NCBI GenBank assembly: GCA_002010665.1
Contig: MTON01000024.1
Location: forward strand, 149,830-206,070
DNA length: 56,241 bases
Reading direction: 5' to 3'
From: Candidatus Aminicenantes bacterium JdFR-78
Lineage (GTDB): Bacteria > Acidobacteriota > Aminicenantia > JdFR-78
Within the stretch, counting starts at the first letter, position 1, and the number at the start of each line of letters is the position of its first letter. A model generated the notes under the pieces. That model had not been told where the DNA came from, did not search any database, and saw nothing but the letters and a program-made list of their open reading frames with translations. Of the stretch, positions 9,528-46,890 are shown piece by piece. The translations under genes were made by a program, and so were the position numbers.

Positions 9528-10616
9528 ATGAGAAAAGCTTATTTAGGTTTAGAAGATGGGTCTATTTTTGAAGGAGAAACATTTTTCAATAAAGAATTTG
9601 AGCGTTATGGAGAAGTAGTTTTTAACACTTCAATGACAGGGTACCAAGAAGTTCTGACTGATCCTTCTTACAAAGGACAAATTGTTGTAATGACTTATCC
9701 TTTAATTGGAAACTATGGAGTTAATAGTGAAGATTTAGAGTCTTCGAAAGTTCAAGTTGAGGGTTTTGTGATTCGAGAATTAAGTAAAATTTCAAGCAAT
9801 TGGCGGGCTGAAAAGAATTTAAAAGATTTTCTTGTTGAAAATAATGTATTCACTCTGACAGAAGTTGATACTCGAGCAATTACAAGAAAAATTAGAATTT
9901 ATGGGGCAATGAAAGGTCTTCTAACTAATAGGAAATATTCAAAAAAGGAATTAATTAAAAAAGTTAGGGAATTGCCATCAATTTCTGAACAGGATTTAGT
10001 TAAATATGTTACAACAAATAAAATTTATTTTTACAATGGAAGAACGGGAAATCCTTTAATCGTTGTTTTAGATTTTGGAGTCAAATTTAATATTTTAAAA
10101 GAATTGAAAAAAAGAGATTTTGATATTGTTGTTTTTCCAGCAAGAACAGATTATGAACTTATATTATCTTATAAACCAGCAGGAGTTGTTCTTTCAAATG
10201 GTCCCGGAGATCCAGCAATTGTGTGCTATGGTATTGAAACAACTAAAAAACTTTTAAATAAAGTGCCAATTTTGGGAATTTGTCTTGGTCATCAAATTCT
10301 TGGACTTGCACTTGGAGGAAAAACATATAAATTAAAATTCGGACATAGGGGAGGGAATCATCCTGTAAAAGATTTGAAGACAGGAAAAGTTATGATTACA
10401 ACACAAAATCACGGTTTTGCTATTGACTTCGAAAGTTTTAAAGATGAAAAAATAGAATTAACCCATATCAATTTAAATGATAATACAGTTGAAGGAATCG
10501 GACATAAAGAAATTCCTTTTATCTCAGTTCAATTTCACCCAGAATCATGTCCTGGGCCTCATGACACAACTTATCTTTTTGATGAATTTAGAAAATTGGT
10601 TATAAGTCGAATGTAA
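9528..10616 (+). CDS. carA: Carbamoyl-phosphate synthase small subunit
   Basis: GEVVFNTSMTGYQE, SNGPGDP, GICLGHQ, QFHPE. Confidence 0.97.
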   Translation: MRKAYLGLEDGSIFEGETFFNKEFERYGEVVFNTSMTGYQEVLTDPSYKGQIVVMTYPLIGNYGVNSEDLESSKVQVEGFVIRELSKISSNWRAEKNLKDFLVENNVFTLTEVDTRAITRKIRIYGAMKGLLTNRKYSKKELIKKVRELPSISEQDLVKYVTTNKIYFYNGRTGNPLIVVLDFGVKFNILKELKKRDFDIVVFPARTDYELILSYKPAGVVLSNGPGDPAIVCYGIETTKKLLNKVPILGICLGHQILGLALGGKTYKLKFGHRGGNHPVKDLKTGKVMITTQNHGFAIDFESFKDEKIELTHINLNDNTVEGIGHKEIPFISVQFHPESCPGPHDTTYLFDEFRKLVISRM

Positions 10617-10670
10617 ATTTTTTGAAATTAATCTTTTATTTAGGAAAATATATTATACGAACAATTAAAT

Positions 10671-13600
10671 ATGCCAAAAAGAAAGGACATTAAAAAAATA
10701 TTAATAATTGGTTCGGGTCCAATAATTATAGGGCAGGCATGTGAATTTGATTATTCTGGTTCGCAAGCATGCAAGGCACTGAAAGAGGAAGGCTATAAAA
10801 TAATTCTTGTTAACTCAAATCCTGCAACAATCATGACTGACCCCGAAATGGTAGACAAAACTTATATTGAACCTCTTGTTCCCGAAATATTGACTAAAGT
10901 TATTCAAAAAGAAAAACCAGATGCTATACTTCCTACTCTGGGAGGACAGACAGCTTTAAATTTAACTGTTGAGCTTTTTGAACAGGAAGTCCTTAAAAAA
11001 TATAACGTAAAAATAATTGGAGTAAAGGTTGATTCTATTAAAAAAACCGAAAATAGAGAGTTATTCAAAAAAACAATGGAGGAAATCGGATTAGAGGTTC
11101 CAAAAGGAGGGACTATTCGTAATACTGAAGAAGCTTTAAGATTACTCGATCTTATCAGTTTTCCTATAATAATCAGACCCTCTTTCACTCTTGGAGGTAC
11201 TGGTGCAGGTATTGCATATAATATGGAAGAATATAAGGAAATGATTGAGTGGGCACTTCGTGTCTCTCCAATTCATGAAGCATTAATTGAGGAATCAGTA
11301 ATTGGATGGAAGGAATATGAGTTGGAAGTAATGCGGGATTCAAAGGATAATGTGGTAATTATTTGCTCGATAGAAAATTTTGATCCAATGGGCGTTCATA
11401 CTGGTGATTCTATCACAGTTGCTCCTGCACAAACCTTAACTGATAAAGAATACCAAAAAATGAGGGATAAAGCCTTAAGAATAATTCGCGCTGTAGGAGT
11501 TGAAACAGGAGGTTCAAACATTCAGTTTGCTGTAAATCCTAAAAATGGAAGAATGCTGGTTATTGAAATGAATCCTAGAGTTTCAAGAAGCTCAGCACTT
11601 GCTTCAAAAGCTACAGGTTTTCCAATAGCAAAAATAGCTGCTAAACTTGCAGTTGGCTATACCTTGGATGAAATTCCAAATGATATTACAAAGAAAACAC
11701 CTGCATCATTTGAACCAGCACTTGACTATTGTGTTGTCAAAATACCACGATGGGATTTTGAAAAATTTCAAGATGTAAATACAGAAATTACAACTCAAAT
11801 GAAATCTATTGGAGAAGTTATGGCAATCGGTAGAACTTTTAAAGAAGCACTTCAGAAAGCTTTGAGAGGTCTAGAAAAAGAGAATTCTGGAATTGGAGTT
11901 TGTTATTTAAAAAATCATTTCAAAAATTTGGATATTGAAGAGATAAAATCAAATCTAAGAAAACCCTCTCCAGACCGTTTATTCTATATTCAGGCAGCTT
12001 TATTAAAAAAAATAGAAATTAAGGAAATACATGAACTCACAGGTATAGATCCTTGGTTTTTAGACCAAATAAAACAAATCCTTGAATTCGAAAATGAATT
12101 AATTTCTCATCAATCCAGGGTTCAAAAAATGGGCTTATCATCTCTTACTCCTCAATTAATAAAAAGAGCAAAACAATTTGGAATGTCAGATTATCAAATC
12201 GCGGTTTCTTTAAGGGAAACACCTGAAAACATTAGAAATTATAGAAAAAATCATAATATTGAATCAGTAGTTAAATGCGTTGATACATGTGCAGGAGAAT
12301 TTGAAGCATTTACCCCGTATTATTATTTAACTTATGAGGAAGAAGATGAAATCAAACAAAGCAATAACAAAAAAATAATGATTTTAGGAGGTGGTCCAAA
12401 TAGAATCGGGCAAGGCATTGAATTTGATTATTGTTGTGTGCATTGTGCTTATGCATTAAAGGAAGAAGGAATTGAATCCGTTATGGTTAATTCAAATCCA
12501 GAAACGGTAAGTACTGATTATGATACATCTGATAGACTGTATTTTGAGCCGTTATATGAAGAAGATATTTTGAATATTATTGAAAAAGAAAAGGTAGATG
12601 GAATTATAGTCCAATTTGGAGGACAAACTCCTCTAAATCTGGTTAAAAAAATCAAAAAATTTGGGAATAGTTATATAAGAATTATTGGCACTGCACCAGA
12701 CAAAATAGATATTGCAGAAAATAGAAGCAGATTTAAGAAGTTTATATCAAATCTTAACCTAAATCAACCTCCGGGTGGAGTTGCCTGTTCAGTTGAAGAA
12801 GCAATTAGAATTGCAGAAAAAATTGGTTATCCTCTCTTAGTAAGACCTTCATATGTAATTGGCGGAAGAGCAATGGAGATAATTTATTCTCGCTCTATGT
12901 TTGAAAACTATTTTCTCAATCAGACTATAAAAGTATCAAGAGAATATCCTATTTTAATAGATAAATTTATTGAGGATGCAATTGAAGTTGATGTTGATGC
13001 AATATCTGATGGAGATACTGTAGTCATTGGAGGTATAATGGAACATATTGAAGAAGCAGGTATTCACTCTGGTGATAGTAGCTGCGTTATACCTCCTGTT
13101 ACACTGGCTAATTCTCAAATTGAAGAAATAAAGCGCCAAACCAAATTAATTGCTACAAAGCTAAGGGTAAGAGGACTTTTAAATATTCAATTCGCAATAA
13201 AAGGTGATTTAATTTATGTCTTAGAAGTTAATCCAAGAGCTTCCCGAACAATTCCTTATGTAAGTAAAGCAATTGGTATTTCATTAGCTAAATTAGCGAC
13301 AAAAGTTATAATAGGAAAAAAATTAAAGGATTTAGGCTTTACCAAAGAAATTATACCAAAGCATTTTGCTGTAAAATATCCTGTTTTTTCCTTTGATAAA
13401 CTACCAGGAGTTGATCCAGTTCTTGGTCCAGAAATGAAGTCCACTGGAGAAGTAATGGGAATTGATTCAGATTTTGGAAAAGCTTTTGCAAAAGCTTACA
13501 TTTCTGCTGGACATAATTTACCTACAAAGGGAACAGTTTTCATAAGTGTTAAAAATAAAGATAAAAGAGCAATTATATTTATAGCAAAAAAATTAAGTGA

Positions 13601-13931
13601 TATAGGTTTCAGACTAATAGCTACACAAGGGACAGCTAATGTCTTACAAAATAATGGATTGGATGTAAAGTCAATATTAAAGGTCTATGAAGGAAGACCA
13701 AATGTTATTGATTTAATTAAAAATCAAGAAATTGATATCATAATAAATACCCCTACAGGTAAGGGCCCAAAACAGGATAGTCTAAATATTAGAAAAATAG
13801 CTATAAAAAGATCAATCCCATGTATTACTACAATTTCTGGAGCATATGCCTGTGTAAATGGAATTGAGGCACTTCAAAAGGGAAATCTTGAAGTAAAAGC
13901 TTTACAAGAATATTTTTCATATAATCTTTGA
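10671..13931 (+). CDS. carB: Carbamoyl-phosphate synthase large subunit
   Basis: [30 protein letters not shown] start, duplicated ATP-grasp domains, C-terminal MGS domain. Confidence 0.98.
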
Positions 13932-17101: not shown

Positions 17102-18451
17102 TCACTGAACATATATAGCTCCAACAGGGCATACGTCTTCACAGATTCCACATCCATTGCATTTCTGTGAATTCACATGAATATTCCACTTCTGGTCATG
17201 ATAGAAAACATCCTCCGTACAAATAGAAATACAAACTCCACAATGAATACATTCATTCTCATTCCTGAACAAATATTTTTCTTCAGGAATTTCAACCTTT
17301 TTTTCTTTAAAAAATTCTATCTCCTTAGGTTCATTCATAGCCATAGATTGAAAAGTTTCCTTTAAGGAGAGTTTTTGAACTGGCTTAGTTAAGAAAAACT
17401 TTCCATTTTCTATCCACTCCTTTAATACTTGAGCAATTAATTTTGCTTTATAAAAACTCGAAAGGGGAGAAGTTTTAACTTTTTTACCATTAATCTCAAT
17501 ATAACCAGATTTCAATTCTGCATAGCTTACCTTTCGTAGAATCGGTCTTGAACGAGAAGGAATCCCATAATCTAGAACATTTGTAATTATATCTGCATCA
17601 CTTAATCCAGTATAATGAGCTATTTCTTCATTCAAAATAGGTATGGGAATGCCAATTCCCAAATACAAGGTGCAGCCATAACCACTGAAAGTTGCAGCTT
17701 TTAAAAATTTACTAGTCATTTCTTTTAGATTTCCGATTACCATTAGTGTGGAAAATTGGTTTTTGGGATCATGTTGGGTCCCGTTTCCAATTATGTATCC
17801 TTGGGTTCCTCCAATAAATATTCTAGTTCCAATACCAATAGTTTCAAAAAAGGGATCATTCATGAGGGGAGATAGCTCTCCTGCTCCTGAATAGGTCGCA
17901 TTTCCAAAATTCGGAAGAAGTTTACCCATGTATGTATAAAGAATTCTGTTAGAAGAATTTGTAGCTACATTATACTTTTGATATGCATTTCTTGGATTGC
18001 ACATAATAGCCTGATTTAAATCATCAATTGTGAGTTGTGTCTCTATGTATTTTCTTGGATAACAATCAGTTCCATATGCTTCAGCTCTCACAATAACAGG
18101 TTTTCTATTAATTAAATCTTCAATTACATGTGCACCTCCATATTTTATACCTAAGGACTCGGATGGTTGAGTTGCACCTAGATAAGCATCAACTGCAGCC
18201 ACGCCTGTGTATGCTTCAACTCCGTTTATCCATACCTTAGACATTTTAATCGGTGGATCCGCATGACCAAAATTAATCCAGACTCCAGAGGAACACATTG
18301 CTCCAAAAGTTCCAGTTGTTACAACATCTACCTTTTCAAAAGCTTTTTTTGGTCCAATTTCTTTTACAATCTTGGTCATTTCATCAGCTGTAACCACTTT
18401 TACCTTTTCTTTTTTAATTTTTTCATTTATTTCTTCTATAGTTCTTGTCAT
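17102..18451 (-). CDS. Homocysteine biosynthesis protein (DUF39; aspartate-semialdehyde sulfurtransferase MA1821/MJ0100-like) fused to a C-terminal 2x[4Fe-4S] ferredoxin
   Basis: [51 protein letters not shown]; C-terminal [11 protein letters not shown] and [12 protein letters not shown]. Confidence 0.9.
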
Positions 18452-19022: not shown

Positions 19023-20504
19023 ATGAAAAAGAGAGGAATAGTCTTAATTTCCATATTTTTGATCCTTTCTCAAATTATATTTTCACAACAGAATCCTTCT
19101 CCTTATGGAATAAATGGACATGTTCCAAAAAATAGAACTCTATCACTAATAAAAAATGCGGGAATAAAATGGGTAAGAGTTGATTTTAACTGGTATGAAA
19201 TCGAAAGTTCCAAAGGAAATTTTAACTGGAAAGAAATGGATAGAGTTGTGAATAACTCAATAGATAAGGGTTTAAGTATACTTGGAGTCCTTGCTTATAC
19301 ACCTTCTTGGGCAAATAATGGCAAGTCTAAAAATTATCCACCCTTAAAAAAACAGTACTGGACAAATTTTGTTAAAAAAGTCGTGAGAAGGTATAAAAGT
19401 AAAGTCAAATATTGGTCAATGTGGAATGAGCCGAATTTGGAAAAATTTTGGTCTGGAACTTTAGATGAGTATGTATTCAATATTCTAATCCCTGGAGCAC
19501 AAACTGCAAAATCGATTGACTCCAATTGTAAAATTGTTGGACCAGATTTATCACATTTGACTACTGGAGATAATATGTGGAACATATGGCTAAGGGCTAT
19601 TTTAAGAGAAGCAAAGGATTATATTGATGTAATTTCTCACCACATTTATGATATTAGGGGACCAACTTATATTTTCGATAAATTAGAAAATGATCAAGGT
19701 CCTCTGCTTCCATCTGTTCTTAGAGTGCTTAAAGAAGAAGGAGTAGATAATAAACCTTTCTGGATTACAGAAACTGGTTGGCCTACAGATGAAGTAGGGG
19801 AGGAGGTTCAGTCAAAATATTATCTCGAGTTTCTTCAAGGAATGAGAAATAGGTCATACATAAATAAAATCTTTTTTTATGAGATAATAGATGACCCAAG
19901 ACCTGAAATTCCTAAATATGGGATTATTTATAATAATTTTACTCCTAAAAAAGCCTATTATACCTATAAGGACTTCATAGCAGGGAAATATCCTCCTGAA
20001 GAACCTGAAAACAAGGGTGAAAGTGATACTAATTGTCCCATAATAACCACATTAAATAAAGATAAAAATTCTTCAAGAAAAATAATATATCTTAAATCTT
20101 TAAGAGATAATTTATTAAAGTCCACAATCCGCGGGAATGAAATTATAAAGCTATATTACAGATATTCGCCAGAAGTCAATTCAATTCTCCTAAATTCTCC
20201 GTATGCTCGTGAATTAGCATTAGAATGTTTAAAGCCTTTTGTGAAATTTAGTGAAGAATTATTTAAAAATCCTTTAGAATTAGAAAATAAGAAATTTTAT
20301 TTGAAACAAAGAGACTGGGAAAAGATTGAGGAATTCATAGAAATTTTGAGAGCTTTTGCAAGTCCTGAATTGTTTAGAATTGTTAATGAAATAGAGGAGA
20401 GATTACCTCAATATAAAGAAAAATCATTGAATGAATTAATTTTAAAATTAGAATTTGAATTTTCATTTTTAAGAAAAGAAAAAGAAAATAAAAATGAAAA
20501 ATAA
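19023..20504 (+). CDS. Secreted clan GH-A glycoside hydrolase (GH5/GH39-like) with C-terminal CFI-box-CTERM-like domain
   Basis: Signal peptide, WNEPN acid/base and ITETG nucleophile motifs; tail CPIITT...LRDNLL...G..IIKLYYRYSP. Confidence 0.8.
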   Translation: MKKRGIVLISIFLILSQIIFSQQNPSPYGINGHVPKNRTLSLIKNAGIKWVRVDFNWYEIESSKGNFNWKEMDRVVNNSIDKGLSILGVLAYTPSWANNGKSKNYPPLKKQYWTNFVKKVVRRYKSKVKYWSMWNEPNLEKFWSGTLDEYVFNILIPGAQTAKSIDSNCKIVGPDLSHLTTGDNMWNIWLRAILREAKDYIDVISHHIYDIRGPTYIFDKLENDQGPLLPSVLRVLKEEGVDNKPFWITETGWPTDEVGEEVQSKYYLEFLQGMRNRSYINKIFFYEIIDDPRPEIPKYGIIYNNFTPKKAYYTYKDFIAGKYPPEEPENKGESDTNCPIITTLNKDKNSSRKIIYLKSLRDNLLKSTIRGNEIIKLYYRYSPEVNSILLNSPYARELALECLKPFVKFSEELFKNPLELENKKFYLKQRDWEKIEEFIEILRAFASPELFRIVNEIEERLPQYKEKSLNELILKLEFEFSFLRKEKENKNEK

Positions 20505-21111
20505 GAAATTGATCATCGTGATGGTTATTCTGACTACATATAATATTGGATTTGCCCAAAAATCCAATACTGTTTCCTCACGATGGGCATTGGGAGTTGG
20601 AGGAGGATGGTATGGAATGCCAGAAGAAATTATGAGTAAATTAGTATATGAATCTCCTGCTTTGAGAGGAAGTACTTATTTTTTAAAATTAAGTTATGAA
20701 GAGGGTACTAAAAGCTTTATTTCTACTGTTTTTCAACTTTCTTTTGTTTATGAGAAAATGTCAGGTTCAGGTATTTGGCGCTACAAAAAAAACTGGGATT
20801 CAATTAAAGGAAGCATTGATTTGACTCAATATTTGATGAGTATTTCAACTATTTTCAATTTTTTCAATAACTTACCATTAAATCCATATTTTGGAATTGG
20901 TCTTGGTCTGGGCAAGTTAGATATATTTGTAAAAGGACAGCTTGTAAAAGACATTGAAATAGAAGAACAGGATGAAATTGGCCTTTATATTCCTGTTTTA
21001 TATATTCCAATAGGGTTGAGATTAAAAGTATATGACTTGTTTGAAATTAAAGTTGAAACAGGATTTCAGAACGGATTTTATATGGGTGGAATTCTCTCCA
21101 TATATCTTTAA
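20494..21111 (+). CDS. Outer-membrane beta-barrel protein
   Basis: Signal peptide, NPYFGIGLGLG strand, alternating aromatic pattern; overlaps the hydrolase stop codon. Confidence 0.6.
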   Translation: MKNKKLIIVMVILTTYNIGFAQKSNTVSSRWALGVGGGWYGMPEEIMSKLVYESPALRGSTYFLKLSYEEGTKSFISTVFQLSFVYEKMSGSGIWRYKKNWDSIKGSIDLTQYLMSISTIFNFFNNLPLNPYFGIGLGLGKLDIFVKGQLVKDIEIEEQDEIGLYIPVLYIPIGLRLKVYDLFEIKVETGFQNGFYMGGILSIYL

Positions 21112-21167: not shown

Positions 21168-21195
21168 GGGTCGTATAAGATATATTATGTAAACC
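21168..21195 (+). other. dif: dif-like XerC/XerD recombination site
   Basis: GGGTCGTATAA-GATATA-TTATGTAAACC: 11-6-11 architecture matching E. coli dif GGTGCGCATAA-TGTATA-TTATGTTAAAT; intergenic between convergent genes. Confidence 0.8.
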
Positions 21196-21250
21196 AATAA
21201 CATATAGATTAAAAAATAAAAAAATGTAAAAAATTCTATTGGGAAAGGAT

Positions 21251-22090
21251 TCAACTTTCAGATTCTAATTGTCTAATGATTGTTTTCAAAATCTCAATTA
21301 TTTCACTTTTTTCAACACTGCTTTTTCTAAAAACTATACTTAATTGATATTCTTTTCCTGGAGGGCGAAATTTAAAAATATAATTTTTTGGCTTTTCAAC
21401 TTTTTTTTCTTTATCCACTTTGAGTTGTTTTGTTAATTTCCGAGTATCTTCACGAGTAAGCCCTTCTTTTTTTATTCTTTCAACAAGTTCTATCATTTTC
21501 TCCTTAGATGGTTGGCGAGCAATTTGAACCAATACTGTCTTTGCTTTTATATTATATTCGCTGCACAATTTTCTTACTTCTTCAGGAATTTTTAATAGGC
21601 TTAAAGTTTCAGTAATTGAAATTCTTGATTTACCAATTTTTTTAGCTATTTCTTGATGTGTATATCCATAAATTTCCACAAGTGCTCTAAGCCCGTCGGC
21701 TTCTTCAAATGGATCTAAATCTTTTCTGTGTAAATTTTCAATCAAGGATATTTCCAGTGACTCTTTATCATCAACATTCATTTCTATACATGGAACTTCT
21801 TTTAAGCCAGCTTTTATTGCAGCTCTATATCTTCTTTCTCCAGAAATTATTTCATATCCTTCACCTTTAGGTCTAACAATAATTGGTTCTAGAATACCTT
21901 TAGATTTAATCGATAAAGCTAAATCATCAATATTGCCCAATTCACTTCTTGGTTGATTAGGATTTGGATATATTTTTTCAATAGGTATAACTCTTAATAA
22001 AGGGCTTTTTGAGATAGATGAAAGGAGTTCAACAAAATGAGTGTCATGTCGCATTTTAAAGGAATCTGGTAAACCTATTTTTTTAGGCAC
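21251..22090 (-). CDS. parB: ParB/Spo0J family partition protein
   Basis: PNPNQPR, GILEPIIVR, ISGERRYRA (CTP-binding box), LIENLHRKDL and an HTH; GTG start. Confidence 0.92.
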   Translation of the reverse strand: MPKKIGLPDSFKMRHDTHFVELLSSISKSPLLRVIPIEKIYPNPNQPRSELGNIDDLALSIKSKGILEPIIVRPKGEGYEIISGERRYRAAIKAGLKEVPCIEMNVDDKESLEISLIENLHRKDLDPFEEADGLRALVEIYGYTHQEIAKKIGKSRISITETLSLLKIPEEVRKLCSEYNIKAKTVLVQIARQPSKEKMIELVERIKKEGLTREDTRKLTKQLKVDKEKKVEKPKNYIFKFRPPGKEYQLSIVFRKSSVEKSEIIEILKTIIRQLESES

Positions 22091-22850
22091 GGCTTATTAT
22101 CTCCTCAACAAGATTTTTATACTGAATTGCACCTGATGAGTTTGGAGCAAAGGTGAAAATTGATTCCTTATATGCAGGACTTTCTTCCAATCTTACACTT
22201 CGCGTTATTATTGTTTTAAATACTACAGGGCCAAATACTTCTTTGATTTTGTTAATCACATCTTTGGATATAACTGTCCTTTTATCATGAAGAGTTATCA
22301 AAACTCCTAAAATTTTTAAATCTGGATTAGCTCTCTGTTTTACTTTTTCAATAGTCTCAAGTAAATCATCAGTGCCTTCCAAGGATAAATAAGATGGTTG
22401 AATAGGAATCAGAATATAAGAAGCTGCAACCATAGCGTTTAATGTTATTAATCCTAATGTAGGTGGAGTATCTATTATTATATATTCATATTCTTTTTTT
22501 AACCCTTCTATTTTATCCTTTAAACGGTAATAACTATCTATTTCACCAAGAAGAGTTGATTCTAATTTAGCCATTGAAATTTTTGATGGGATAAGGTGCA
22601 GCCCAGGCACAGTAGTATTTAAAATAATATCTTTTAATGTGATATTTGAATCAGTTAAAGCTTCATATATGGATTTTTCTATTTTTTCTGGATTTAATAC
22701 ATAAGAAATAGTTGAATTTGCCTGAGGATCAACGTCCACAAGCAGAGTTTTAAACCCTTTAAAGGCAAGAGCTGCGGAAATATTAATAGCAGTTGTGGTC
22801 TTCCCTACTCCACCTTTTTGATTCGCGATTGTAATAACAGTATTTTTCAT
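22083..22850 (-). CDS. parA: ParA/Soj family ATPase
   Basis: NQKGGVGKTTT, DVDPQAN, IIIDTPP, RSVRLEESP. Confidence 0.95.
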   Translation of the reverse strand: MKNTVITIANQKGGVGKTTTAINISAALAFKGFKTLLVDVDPQANSTISYVLNPEKIEKSIYEALTDSNITLKDIILNTTVPGLHLIPSKISMAKLESTLLGEIDSYYRLKDKIEGLKKEYEYIIIDTPPTLGLITLNAMVAASYILIPIQPSYLSLEGTDDLLETIEKVKQRANPDLKILGVLITLHDKRTVISKDVINKIKEVFGPVVFKTIITRSVRLEESPAYKESIFTFAPNSSGAIQYKNLVEEIISRA

Positions 22851-22899
22851 ATTTGTTTAATTTATAACATTAATAACCGAAAAAAATCAAGTATTTAAT

Positions 22900-22915
22900 T
22901 GTCGGCATGCAGACA
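22900..22915. promoter_or_regulatory. 16-bp near-perfect palindrome, candidate parS/operator
   Basis: TGTCGGCATGCAGACA (one mismatch), about 10 bp upstream of the putative parA -35 (TTGATT, 22885-22890, minus strand). Confidence 0.4.
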
Positions 22916-22922
22916 TTTTGGA

Positions 22923-22959
22923 TGACAATTATTGTCACAGTTGTTGACAAATTTTGTCA
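22923..22959. promoter_or_regulatory. Tandem palindromes, candidate enhancer-binding-protein sites (UAS)
   Basis: TGACAATTATTGTCA (22923-22937) and TGACAAATTTTGTCA (22945-22959), both perfect 7-1-7, offset by 22 bp. Confidence 0.6.
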
Positions 22960-23019
22960 TAAAATACTAATAAATTTGGTTATCTTATTGAAAATAAAAA
23001 AGATAGTTTATGAATTTTT

Positions 23020-23035
23020 TGGCATGGTTTTTGCA
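23020..23035 (+). promoter_or_regulatory. sigma54 (-24/-12) promoter
   Basis: TGGCATGGTTTTTGCA = GG-N10-GC; strong SD AAGGAGG downstream, before 23063. Confidence 0.8.
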
Positions 23036-23062
23036 GAATAAGATAGTGAAAGGAGGAGAAAG

Positions 23063-25414: not shown

Positions 25415-25508
<94 letters not shown>

Positions 25509-25590
25509 TCCACGCTTTTTTATTTTAACATTTATTATTTCAAAGTCAATCTTCCTTTAACAAATGACCATTTGCCATTAACCATATAAA

Positions 25591-25683
25591 TGGCGGAGGG
25601 AGAGGGATTCGAACCCCCGTCCCGGGATCTACCCGGGAAGCGATTTTCAAGACCGCCGCCTTAAGCCACTCGGCCATCCCTCC
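25591..25683 (-). tRNA. tRNA-Ser(TGA)
   Basis: GGAGGGA...TCCCTCCGCCA, anticodon arm gcggt-ctTGAaa-atcgc, long variable arm, encoded CCA. Confidence 0.97.
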
Positions 25684-25718: not shown

Positions 25719-27687
<1,969 letters not shown>

Positions 27688-46540: not shown

Positions 46541-46890
46541 GGGGGCGAAAAGGGCTCGACGGAGATAATGAGGCGGAAGCAGCATGCCGAGGTTCCACCA
46601 ACCTCGTTAAAAAGGTGGAAAAAAAGAAGTGCAGAAACTCTGCCTGTCGCTGCCTAAAAAGTAAGGCAGCCATCCCTTTAGCCTTTTCCCGCGGGGCTTG
46701 AGGGATGTCGGTGAGCGGGATAGCGACCCGGATTTGTCCTGAGTCCGGGAAGCGAAACTTTATCAGGACTAGTCGATGGGTGTTTTGCCTCTTCGAACCC
46801 CATCGATGAAGATTTAAGAAGAGGATAAGCATGTAGAACCTTCTCGCCGAAGATCTCCGGACGCGGGTTCGATTCCCGCCGCCTCCACCA
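46541..46890 (+). ncRNA. ssrA: tmRNA; tag reading frame 46631-46657 encodes AETLPVAA*
   Basis: GGGGGCG/CGCCTCC-ACCA acceptor stem with G3.U, CTCGAC, GCATGCCGAG, T-arm GGTTCGATTCC; tag ends in AA-stop. Confidence 0.96.

Follow-up and report, generated by a model that had tools for sequence, protein, structure and literature searches.

A pair of partition genes, parA2 and parB2, lies directly beside a dif site in a stretch of DNA from Candidatus Aminicenantes bacterium JdFR-78 (56,241 nucleotides, hereafter the window; C1:149830–206070 of the draft genome G000, where C1 is contig MTON01000024.1). The genome comprises 2.53 Mb in 42 contigs, with a guanine-cytosine (GC) content of 32%. It is held with high confidence that this arrangement is real and conserved. 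The interpretation put forward here is that a complete second ParABS-type module is coupled physically to the single dif of the terminus, where a complex of ParB2 with a parS-like site (parS2) would form; a probability of about 0.6 is given to it, and the specific downstream role of such a complex is held with less confidence.

The module has the order parS2-parA2-parB2, followed by dif. The two genes overlap by 8 bp, through which they are translationally coupled, and a gap of 55 bp separates the end of the dif-like 28-mer from the parB2 stop codon (21251–21253). An earlier reading, made from the letters of the DNA only (the sequence-only reading), had reported a dif-like 28-mer 55 bp past the parB stop, and all of the coordinates hold. 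It had also described core-gene surroundings, and serS, carAB and the tRNAs (two tRNA-Ser genes) are all located in the window. The same applies to its statement that the window is free of integrase, dnaA, mnmG and rsmG: integrase-family matches are confined genome-wide to the contigs C32, C26 and C24, with none on the contig of the window, while dnaA, mnmG and rsmG are found on C2.

The dif Site and the Replication Terminus

The 28-mer consists of a XerC-type arm (21168–21178), a 6-bp spacer (21179–21184) and a XerD-type arm (21185–21195) that faces parB2, all read on the plus strand; the arms were assigned by comparison with model dif sites. According to the part of PMC5357621 that deals with its structure, dif has 28 bp, in which two 11-bp arms with partial dyad symmetry flank a 6-bp spacer, and the 28-mer meets this published 11-6-11 layout. 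It is unique, as no second site within 7 mismatches was found in the genome and a genome-wide search with looser dif core motifs gave no comparable second candidate, which disposes of the earlier concern that a better dif might lie elsewhere. A degenerate dif pattern derived from the 28-mer was matched with at most one mismatch in 35 of 41 relatives of the class (reversed control: 5 matches in 4 genomes) and exactly in 123 of 151 class genomes (reversed control: 0 matches), and it is single-copy in most relatives.

The expected skew switch was found at the locus, at the level of the contig. The cumulative G-C of C1 reaches its maximum at 163 kb with a plateau at 159–174 kb, inside which dif lies at 171 kb; from left to right the skew changes from +0.056 to -0.097 (Mann-Whitney p=0.001, 5-kb windows), and the coding-strand bias switches from 55% to 40% plus-strand. 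XerD (TIGR02225, 390.6 bits, cut-off 329.6) and XerC (TIGR02224, 356.8 bits, cut-off 335.15) are encoded away from the locus, and FtsK (PF01580, 225 bits) is encoded elsewhere in the genome. In three single-contig genomes of the class, dif is nearly antipodal to dnaA, at 46–54% of the circle. The positions of dif and dnaA are 2.827 and 0.504 Mb in G156 (4.3 Mb, separation ~54%), 0.936 and 2.654 Mb in G148 (3.2 Mb, ~54%) and 1.060 and 2.658 Mb in G094 (3.3 Mb, ~48%), with genome sizes given as rounded values.

Judged by its sequence and position, the 28-mer is the dif of this chromosome and lies at its terminus. It is very improbable that it is not a functional dif or that the locus lies away from the terminus, even though no global skew can be drawn for a draft of 42 contigs and the skew around the site of one relative (G041) is ambiguous: the site is unique and of 11-6-11 form, 123 of 151 relatives have a single copy of its pattern against 0 control matches, it stands at the skew switch of G000 and near-antipodal to dnaA in the three single-contig genomes, and XerC, XerD and FtsK are all encoded.

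The Origin-Proximal System of the Same Genome

The genome encodes another Par system on C2, where the genes rnpA-yidC-jag-mnmE-mnmG-rsmG-parA1-parB1-bactofilin occupy 169.8–178.5 kb. A search of the genome with the canonical parS consensus gave only one perfect site, on C2, 30 bp upstream of parA1. The skew minimum of C2 is at 152–161 kb and dnaA at 111.5 kb. ParB1 carries the LGKG-type motif that is usual at the N-terminus as well as a ParB_C domain (PF23552), and its identity to ParB2 is ~33–40%. Since the origin-type parAB1 and the only perfect canonical parS are on C2, parA2 and parB2 of the window form a second system, a paralogue of the origin-proximal parAB1/parS. Two suppositions of the sequence-only reading, that the locus is not near oriC and that it is a second ParABS module at ter, are thereby borne out: dnaA, mnmG-rsmG-parA1-parB1 and the perfect parS all lie on C2 around the skew minimum, and parAB2 lies beside dif on C1. 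Both Par systems are on one contig in four other genomes (G017, G041, G042 and G043).

Two observations concern the cluster on C2 itself. The rsmG gene is apparently split (C2:175925–176556; L010:10926–11557), as an open reading frame (ORF) of 105 residues covers the first half of the GidB model only and is followed by one of 98 residues without a family match; a frameshift, an error in the assembly and a genuine split could each account for this. The bactofilin gene is directly 3' of parB1 (C2:178167–178526; L010:13168–13527), and a linkage of parAB to bactofilin is known from Myxococcus.

Conservation of the Adjacency in the Class

In 27 of the 41 class relatives, dif follows the stop codon of parB2 at a distance of less than 250 bp, always with the TTATGT arm facing parB2. 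The adjacency covers 10 of 12 families and is present in every genome of those except G032, in which neither ParB2 nor dif was found; among 80 loci compared, it is likewise seen in 20 of Aminicenantes type. The parA2-parB2-dif block is kept in 13 of 13 compared loci with variable flanks (the parA2 of L120 was not resolved by ORF picking). In seven of these 13, rho-lon(-tig) follows beyond dif, often after inserted genes, and the upstream genes vary too. Two families depart from the pattern. In f2, parA2-parB2 are on a different contig from dif, and in f6 an orphan parB2 is part of a glyQ-glyS-parB2-glycosyltransferase operon. The conservation in relatives that had been asked about is therefore real, and the exceptional f2 and f6 add to the case, since a palindrome stayed at dif there, as described below.

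On the side of dif that faces away from parS2, the gene content varies, and genes of a defence or mobile type are frequent. They include a GmrSD-like nuclease, an 889-residue protein that contains a phage-integrase domain, and a DDE transposase (examples are L122:9969–11738 in G017, L126:4321–6990 in G022 and L060:6577–7869), which fits dif being an insertion hot spot.

A parS-Like Palindrome Held at dif

A 16-bp palindrome, in its perfect form TGTCGGCATGCCGACA, is present upstream of parA2 in most loci of the class; variants differ in the two central bases or by a symmetric change of the arms from GGC..GCC to GAC..GTC. The copy in the window, TGTCGGCATGCAGACA, precedes the parA2 start by 50 bp; its distance from dif is 1705 bp, and it is on the side of the XerD arm. 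It is the sole match in the window at up to 3 mismatches, where 0 are expected, and it is unique in the genome, with the next best site having 2 mismatches. The two orthogonal Par gene sets of the genome are thus associated with different 16-bp palindromes, one at ori and the other at dif/ter. The pattern TGTCGRCNNGYCGACA was matched exactly in 123 of 151 class genomes, mostly once, and its reversed control in 2 genomes. Among the matches listed, an exact dif is on the same contig as the palindrome, 0.18–2.7 kb off, in 65 of 69 genomes. Of the other four, G100 and G031 have no match to dif, G076 has the two sites on different contigs, and in G034 a dif with 1 mismatch lies at 1.3 kb.

The f2 and f6 genomes that have dif but non-adjacent par genes are the most informative in this respect. 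In all eight, the palindrome (at most 1 mismatch) is on the side of the XerD arm, 0.12–2.7 kb from dif, with G008 having a copy on either side; no palindrome was found beside the relocated par genes of these genomes. The genes between palindrome and dif differ, as between G013 and G018. Passive synteny does not account for the retention of the palindrome at dif after the intervening genes had been replaced (f2) or lost (f6). This association suggests that the palindrome is the cognate parS2 of ParB2.

The alternative that the palindrome is merely the operator or promoter of parA2-parB2, or the site of another protein, and that ParB2 has its targets elsewhere in the manner of Noc or KorB, would account for the position of the G000 site in the promoter region, 50 bp upstream of the parA2 start, and for the single site per genome in most relatives. 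Non-partition members of the ParB family are known, and two of them, Noc and KorB, are among the solved relatives of ParB2. It is nevertheless quite unlikely, since in f2 and f6 the palindrome is at dif and far from the par genes, so that it is not their operator there, since in other classes it occupies the middle of parB2, where a promoter would not be placed, and since ParB2 reaches 172.5 bits with the Noc model against a cut-off of 315.

Two TGACAA-N3-TTGTCA palindromes next to the candidate parS2 (22923–22937 and 22945–22959) were also considered as parS2 and rejected. This 15-bp element has 9 copies genome-wide, all intergenic, against roughly 0.3 expected from a rough base-composition estimate; the others are at C3:210419, C4:81234, C4:102432, C5:17461, C11:56451, C21:140 and C22:6814. 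Each copy includes a -35-like hexamer (TTGACA), and a further palindrome often accompanies it, which suggests a promoter or operator element shared by a regulon. The second palindrome, ATGTAAACA-N2/3-TGTTTACAT, is right beside the first in four promoter regions (C3:~210435–210460, C4:~81205–81230, C4:~102450–102475 and C21:~110–135). Its half-site resembles the XerD-type arm of dif, and it may be a repressor operator.

ParB2 as a Distinct Subfamily

Residues 35–228 of ParB2 align with solved chains of Spo0J, ParB and Noc and more weakly with KorB; the best match is the Spo0J chain 1vz0_A (E=1.5e-42), and the Noc chains have E 4.7e-37. The NPxQPR, GERRxR (GERRYRA) and ENLQR (ENL(H/Q)RKDL) boxes are invariant in the orthologues, with N43, P44, Q46, R48, G84, E85, R86, R87, E118, N119, L120 and R122 unchanged in 13 of them. 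The first and the last of these boxes align with those of the solved Spo0J and ParB chains and presumably bind cytidine triphosphate (CTP). The N-terminus carries the conserved peptide K-x-G-L-P-x-S-x-x-M-R-H-D-T-H-F-V, of which M13, H15, D16, H18 and V20 are invariant in the 13 orthologues; the MRHDxHxVE motif first noticed in the single sequence is thus real and conserved. The canonical LG(R/K)GL-type motif that stimulates ParA is absent from the ParB2 N-terminus. The C-terminal ~50 residues have no Pfam match, yet they are conserved (P243, F254, L268). Only a generic ParB domain model of NCBIfam was passed, and with the Noc model (TIGR04285) ParB1 scores higher, at 247.9 bits, than ParB2, which is not a Noc by this model.

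ParB2 has orthologues in 40 of the 41 relatives from the class, and ParB1 accompanies it in every one of these. ParB2 is found as well in loci of Vicinamibacteria, Blastocatellia, Chloracidobacterium, Terriglobia/Acidiferrales and others, and its nearest ESM Atlas clusters are from Aminicenantota/Acidobacteriota. In a maximum-likelihood tree of 37 ParB2 sequences, where ParB1 forms the outgroup on a very long branch and several of the deep nodes are open, the families f1–f7 emerge as clades, which fits vertical descent. On the evidence of these alignments and of the tree, ParB2 is a distinct, vertically inherited subfamily across Acidobacteriota.

This bears on the view that the locus is a relic, left by a parABS plasmid or a Xer-integrating element at the ancestral dif, in which the par genes were retained for some other task, such as gene regulation or the positioning of cargo, and the synteny has no function. 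Such elements exist: in PMC5357621, the gonococcal genetic island is a 57-kb integrative mobile element exploiting Xer (IMEX) at dif, and the abstract of PMC3334931 names ParA and ParB in such island clusters. The best partial NCBIfam scores of ParA2 are with plasmid RepA/ParA models, all below cut-off, and the variable or defence genes beyond dif in relatives (transposase, GmrSD, integrase-domain protein) would agree with this origin. A relic is nonetheless unlikely, as the clades f1–f7 fit vertical descent, the window holds no mobility genes and no second dif-like site exists within 7 mismatches (a strongly degenerate one could escape). Moreover, the palindrome remained intact at dif after gene replacement (f2) or loss (f6), while the moved genes are without a new site.

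ParA2 and Its Link to ParB2

ParA2 has a deviant Walker A motif, KGGVGKTT (K12–T19), which is invariant in 20 orthologues together with D39/D41 and D127, and in 27 of 30 class loci its gene immediately precedes parB2. In all nine genomes tested of f5 (4), f9 (1) and f6 (4), ParA2 is absent genome-wide and only ParA1 was found; the three families are on open nodes of the tree, and there may have been one loss or several. The ParB2 of exactly these genomes starts at about residue 27–31, without the N-terminal peptide. This joint loss suggests that the peptide is the contact to ParA2. In f5, parS2-parB2-dif forms a compact unit of ~0.9 kb without ParA2.

The prediction of a complex between two copies of ParA2 with adenosine triphosphate (ATP) and residues 1–40 of ParB2 gave a score of 0.35, against 0.00 for the best of three controls. 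In a benchmark, this score was reached by 58 of 80 solved complexes and by 2 of 110 mismatched pairs, although scores that reach this mark and do not exceed 0.60 came from only 7 of the 80 solved complexes and from both mismatches. The runs share at least 62% of contacts, the partner has a predicted local distance difference test (pLDDT) value of at least 47, and likeness to solved ParA-ParB peptide complexes may add to the score. The prediction lends weak support to a contact of ParA2 with this part of ParB2.

Traces of the Link Beyond the Class

In 23 of 60 loci from outside Aminicenantes, the palindrome lies inside parB2, at +516 to +534 nt. It always reads TGT CGG .. GCC GAC, with its synonymous codons fixed, and codes for C-R-[L/R]-A-D-I, even at 65–70% GC. 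In lineages without the palindrome the same peptide is variable (CIESGI, CKKYDI, CHENNI), which indicates that the DNA constrains the peptide and not the reverse. The other classes with such an in-gene site presumably include cultured members. A dif-like site lies 0.3–4.5 kb downstream of parB2 in 6 of the 60 loci (L102, L107, L112, L088, L090 and L108), and in the remainder none was found within 6 kb with a simple degenerate pattern. In G043 (61% GC), ParB2 is 10 kb from the cumulative-skew maximum (400-kb sample; +0.034 vs -0.029, p=0.007) and 2.17 Mb from dnaA in a genome of 4.5 Mb. Traces of a link between dif and parABS extend to Vicinamibacteria, Blastocatellia and Terriglobia.

Another motif of 11-6-11 form, CGNGAATAATCNATGTTATANAC, with a TCGATG/TCAATG spacer, is single-copy, occurring once in each of five Terriglobia-like genomes with 0 control matches (Table 1). 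It is 1.5–2.9 kb downstream of parB2 in three of the five and near the end of another contig in two, and may be a lineage-specific variant of dif. In one of these genomes, G045, a dif-like site of the classical type is present as well, 4.5 kb from parB2.

A Possible Role as a Terminus Mark

The functional part of the sequence-only reading, namely that ter is positioned or segregated or is coupled to FtsK/Xer, stays an inference, and so does the mechanism proposed here. In it, parS2 would be the nucleation site of ParB2 dimers, which would close into CTP-gated clamps and spread across 1–3 kb of adjacent DNA, by which dif would come to lie inside a ParB2 nucleoprotein complex. Where ParA2 is present, the N-terminal peptide of ParB2 would engage nucleoid-bound ParA2-ATP and position or separate the sister termini; where it is missing, ParB2-parS2 alone would mark dif. 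Since ParB2-parS2 is kept at dif where ParA2 is lost, the conserved core role is most likely that of a terminus mark. Candidate tasks of such a mark are the organisation of ter, the tethering of ter to FtsK or to the site of division, the handling of the structural maintenance of chromosomes (SMC) complex and the gating of XerCD. A par cassette was likely fixed at dif early in Acidobacteriota. In its fullest form, the proposal is a terminus-specific second centromere, in which ParB2 at parS2 coats dif, ParA2 moves the resulting partition complex where it is present, and the positioning or segregation of ter is mechanically coupled to XerCD/FtsK dimer resolution and division; this is possible rather than probable and is offered tentatively. 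If true, it would be a ParABS counterpart of MatP/matS or ZapT, and this chromosome would be the first in which ori and ter each have a dedicated Par centromere.

Several points weigh against a ParABS module that works at dif. ParA2 is lost in three families (f5, f6 and f9), so ParA-driven movement is not a universal role, and the parB2 of f6 is 63 kb from dnaA, which means that active partition of ter is not universal either. On the complete chromosome G041, the separation of dif and dnaA amounts to only 41% of the circle, with an ambiguous skew whose local maximum is 23 kb from dif and whose right side is flat, and in G042 ParB2 is only 33–35% of the circle from dnaA. The window copy of parS2 has one arm mismatch relative to the perfect palindrome of a relative from the same genus. 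The palindrome-dif distances rest on the matches listed for 69 genomes, with 57 further sites outside that set, and the candidate palindrome could be only the operator of the operon. ParB2 has no Pfam match to the dimerisation domain ParB_C (PF23552), which ParB1 has. Outside Aminicenantes, about 37 of the 60 loci have neither palindrome nor dif-like site within 6 kb, so that the dif link may not be general across the phylum. Finally, a covariation between the helix-turn-helix (HTH) of ParB2 and the GAC variant of the palindrome (T-to-S and S-to-T in f3) was considered and rejected; one or two events on the tree suffice for it, and being confounded by phylogeny it is not used as evidence.

Features of the Locus

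The features of the module and its surroundings are collected in Table 1. On the far side of dif, an ORF of 205 residues (20494–21111) has no Pfam or NCBIfam match, and its position is not conserved in relatives. Farther off in the window, a transfer-messenger RNA gene is found at 46541–46890, with the tag peptide AETLPVAA. A gene at 17102–18451, which adjoins asd and aspartokinase, encodes a homocysteine-biosynthesis (HcyBio) enzyme fused to a 4Fe-4S dicluster domain, which suggests that this bacterium has a methionine or homocysteine route of archaeal type.

Table 1. Positions of the partition module, its neighbours in the window and the candidate dif variants of Terriglobia-like genomes.
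Feature	Position	Strand	Remarks
dif 28-mer GGGTCGTATAAGATATATTATGTAAACC	21168–21195	+	11-6-11 layout, partial dyad symmetry
parB2	21251–22090	-	279 aa, GTG start; Pfam ParB_N (PF02195) 4.6e-29, HTH_ParB (PF17762) 1.3e-19
parA2	22083–22850	-	255 aa, small Soj-type; Pfam AAA_31 2.6e-60, CbiA
Divergent intergenic region, parA2 / HD-domain gene	22851–23062		Contains candidate parS2 and two TGACAA-N3-TTGTCA palindromes
Candidate parS2 TGTCGGCATGCAGACA	22900–22915		16-bp palindrome, from comparative genomics
carAB	9528–13931		
Two tRNA-Ser genes	25415–25683		
serS	25719–27002		
CGNGAATAATCNATGTTATANAC site	G043:C1:454220–454242		
CGNGAATAATCNATGTTATANAC site	G044:C168:22114–22136		
CGNGAATAATCNATGTTATANAC site	G045:C6:63179–63201		
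CGNGAATAATCNATGTTATANAC site	G046:C18:609–631		
CGNGAATAATCNATGTTATANAC site	G042:C4:2457–2479		

Comparison with Known Systems

Chromosomal ParABS systems serve the segregation of the origin, and the handling of the terminus is credited to unrelated factors, namely MatP, ZapT, FtsK/XerCD and the XerD-dependent unloading of SMC. The component families, ParA, ParB and dif/XerCD, are known already. What is new is a chromosomal ParABS with its site held at the terminus dif, a distinct parS core and a distinct N-terminal peptide of ParB. A cis site of ParABS that is held at dif across a class would mean that a ParB clamp is recruited to the opposite pole of the replicon, and the 16-bp site, the protein pair and the natural variants with ParA2 loss or relocation make terminus handling outside Proteobacteria directly testable. 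The sequence-only reading had singled the locus out as a candidate for an undescribed system. In line with this, no description of a terminus- or dif-linked ParABS, or of an Acidobacteria ParB, was found in the main texts searched, each covered in part (supplementary survey tables could differ), and a term look-up in a 2025 survey of the ParB-CTPase fold (PMC12704722) and a 2020 review of ParB (PMC7022226) returned no such system from the portions covered.

The module resembles the origin ParABS (Soj/Spo0J/parS) in its deviant Walker-A ParA, in the ParB_N, GERRxR, ENLQR and HTH elements of ParB and in a 16-bp palindrome with TGT...ACA ends, which in some lineages lies inside parB. It differs in that parAB2 is at dif and the terminus and shares its chromosome with a canonical origin system, in the CGGC..GCCG core of parS2, which is usually a single site, and in ParB2, which has the peptide GLPxSxxMRHDTHFV where ParB1 has the LGKG-type motif and lacks the Pfam ParB_C domain. 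A parS site within the spo0J gene is known from B. subtilis. Noc with its Noc-binding sites (NBS) is likewise a ParB paralogue with an altered specificity for a 16-bp site, and solved Noc chains are close relatives of ParB2. However, ParB2 is below the NCBIfam cut-off for Noc, has its own ParA and has a single site at ter, whereas NBS are many and scarce near ter.

MatP, with matS, organises the Ter macrodomain of enterobacteria. ZapT is described as a protein of the terminus region of Caulobacter in the abstract of PMC7858052. Both are functional analogues only, as sequence-specific markers of the terminus with a possible link to division. They belong to unrelated families, and the present system has one or two sites at dif rather than many sites across a macrodomain and, in most lineages, a ParA partner. 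ParAB2/parS2 of Vibrio cholerae chromosome 2 is also a second, orthogonal ParABS with its own site specificity, but it serves a separate replicon near the origin of that replicon, while here both systems are on one chromosome.

The gonococcal genetic island and other IMEX share with this locus the par genes that adjoin dif. IMEX have two dif-type sites, a patchy distribution and transfer genes, whereas the present locus has one dif (7-mismatch search) and lacks mobility genes, and ParB2, which 40 of 41 relatives possess, tracks the species tree. The nearest formal parallel of a gene that is linked to its dif and inherited with it as one module is streptococcal difSL-xerS, as presented in PMC5357621. 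The linked gene there is the recombinase; here it is a partition pair with its site, and XerC and XerD are encoded elsewhere.

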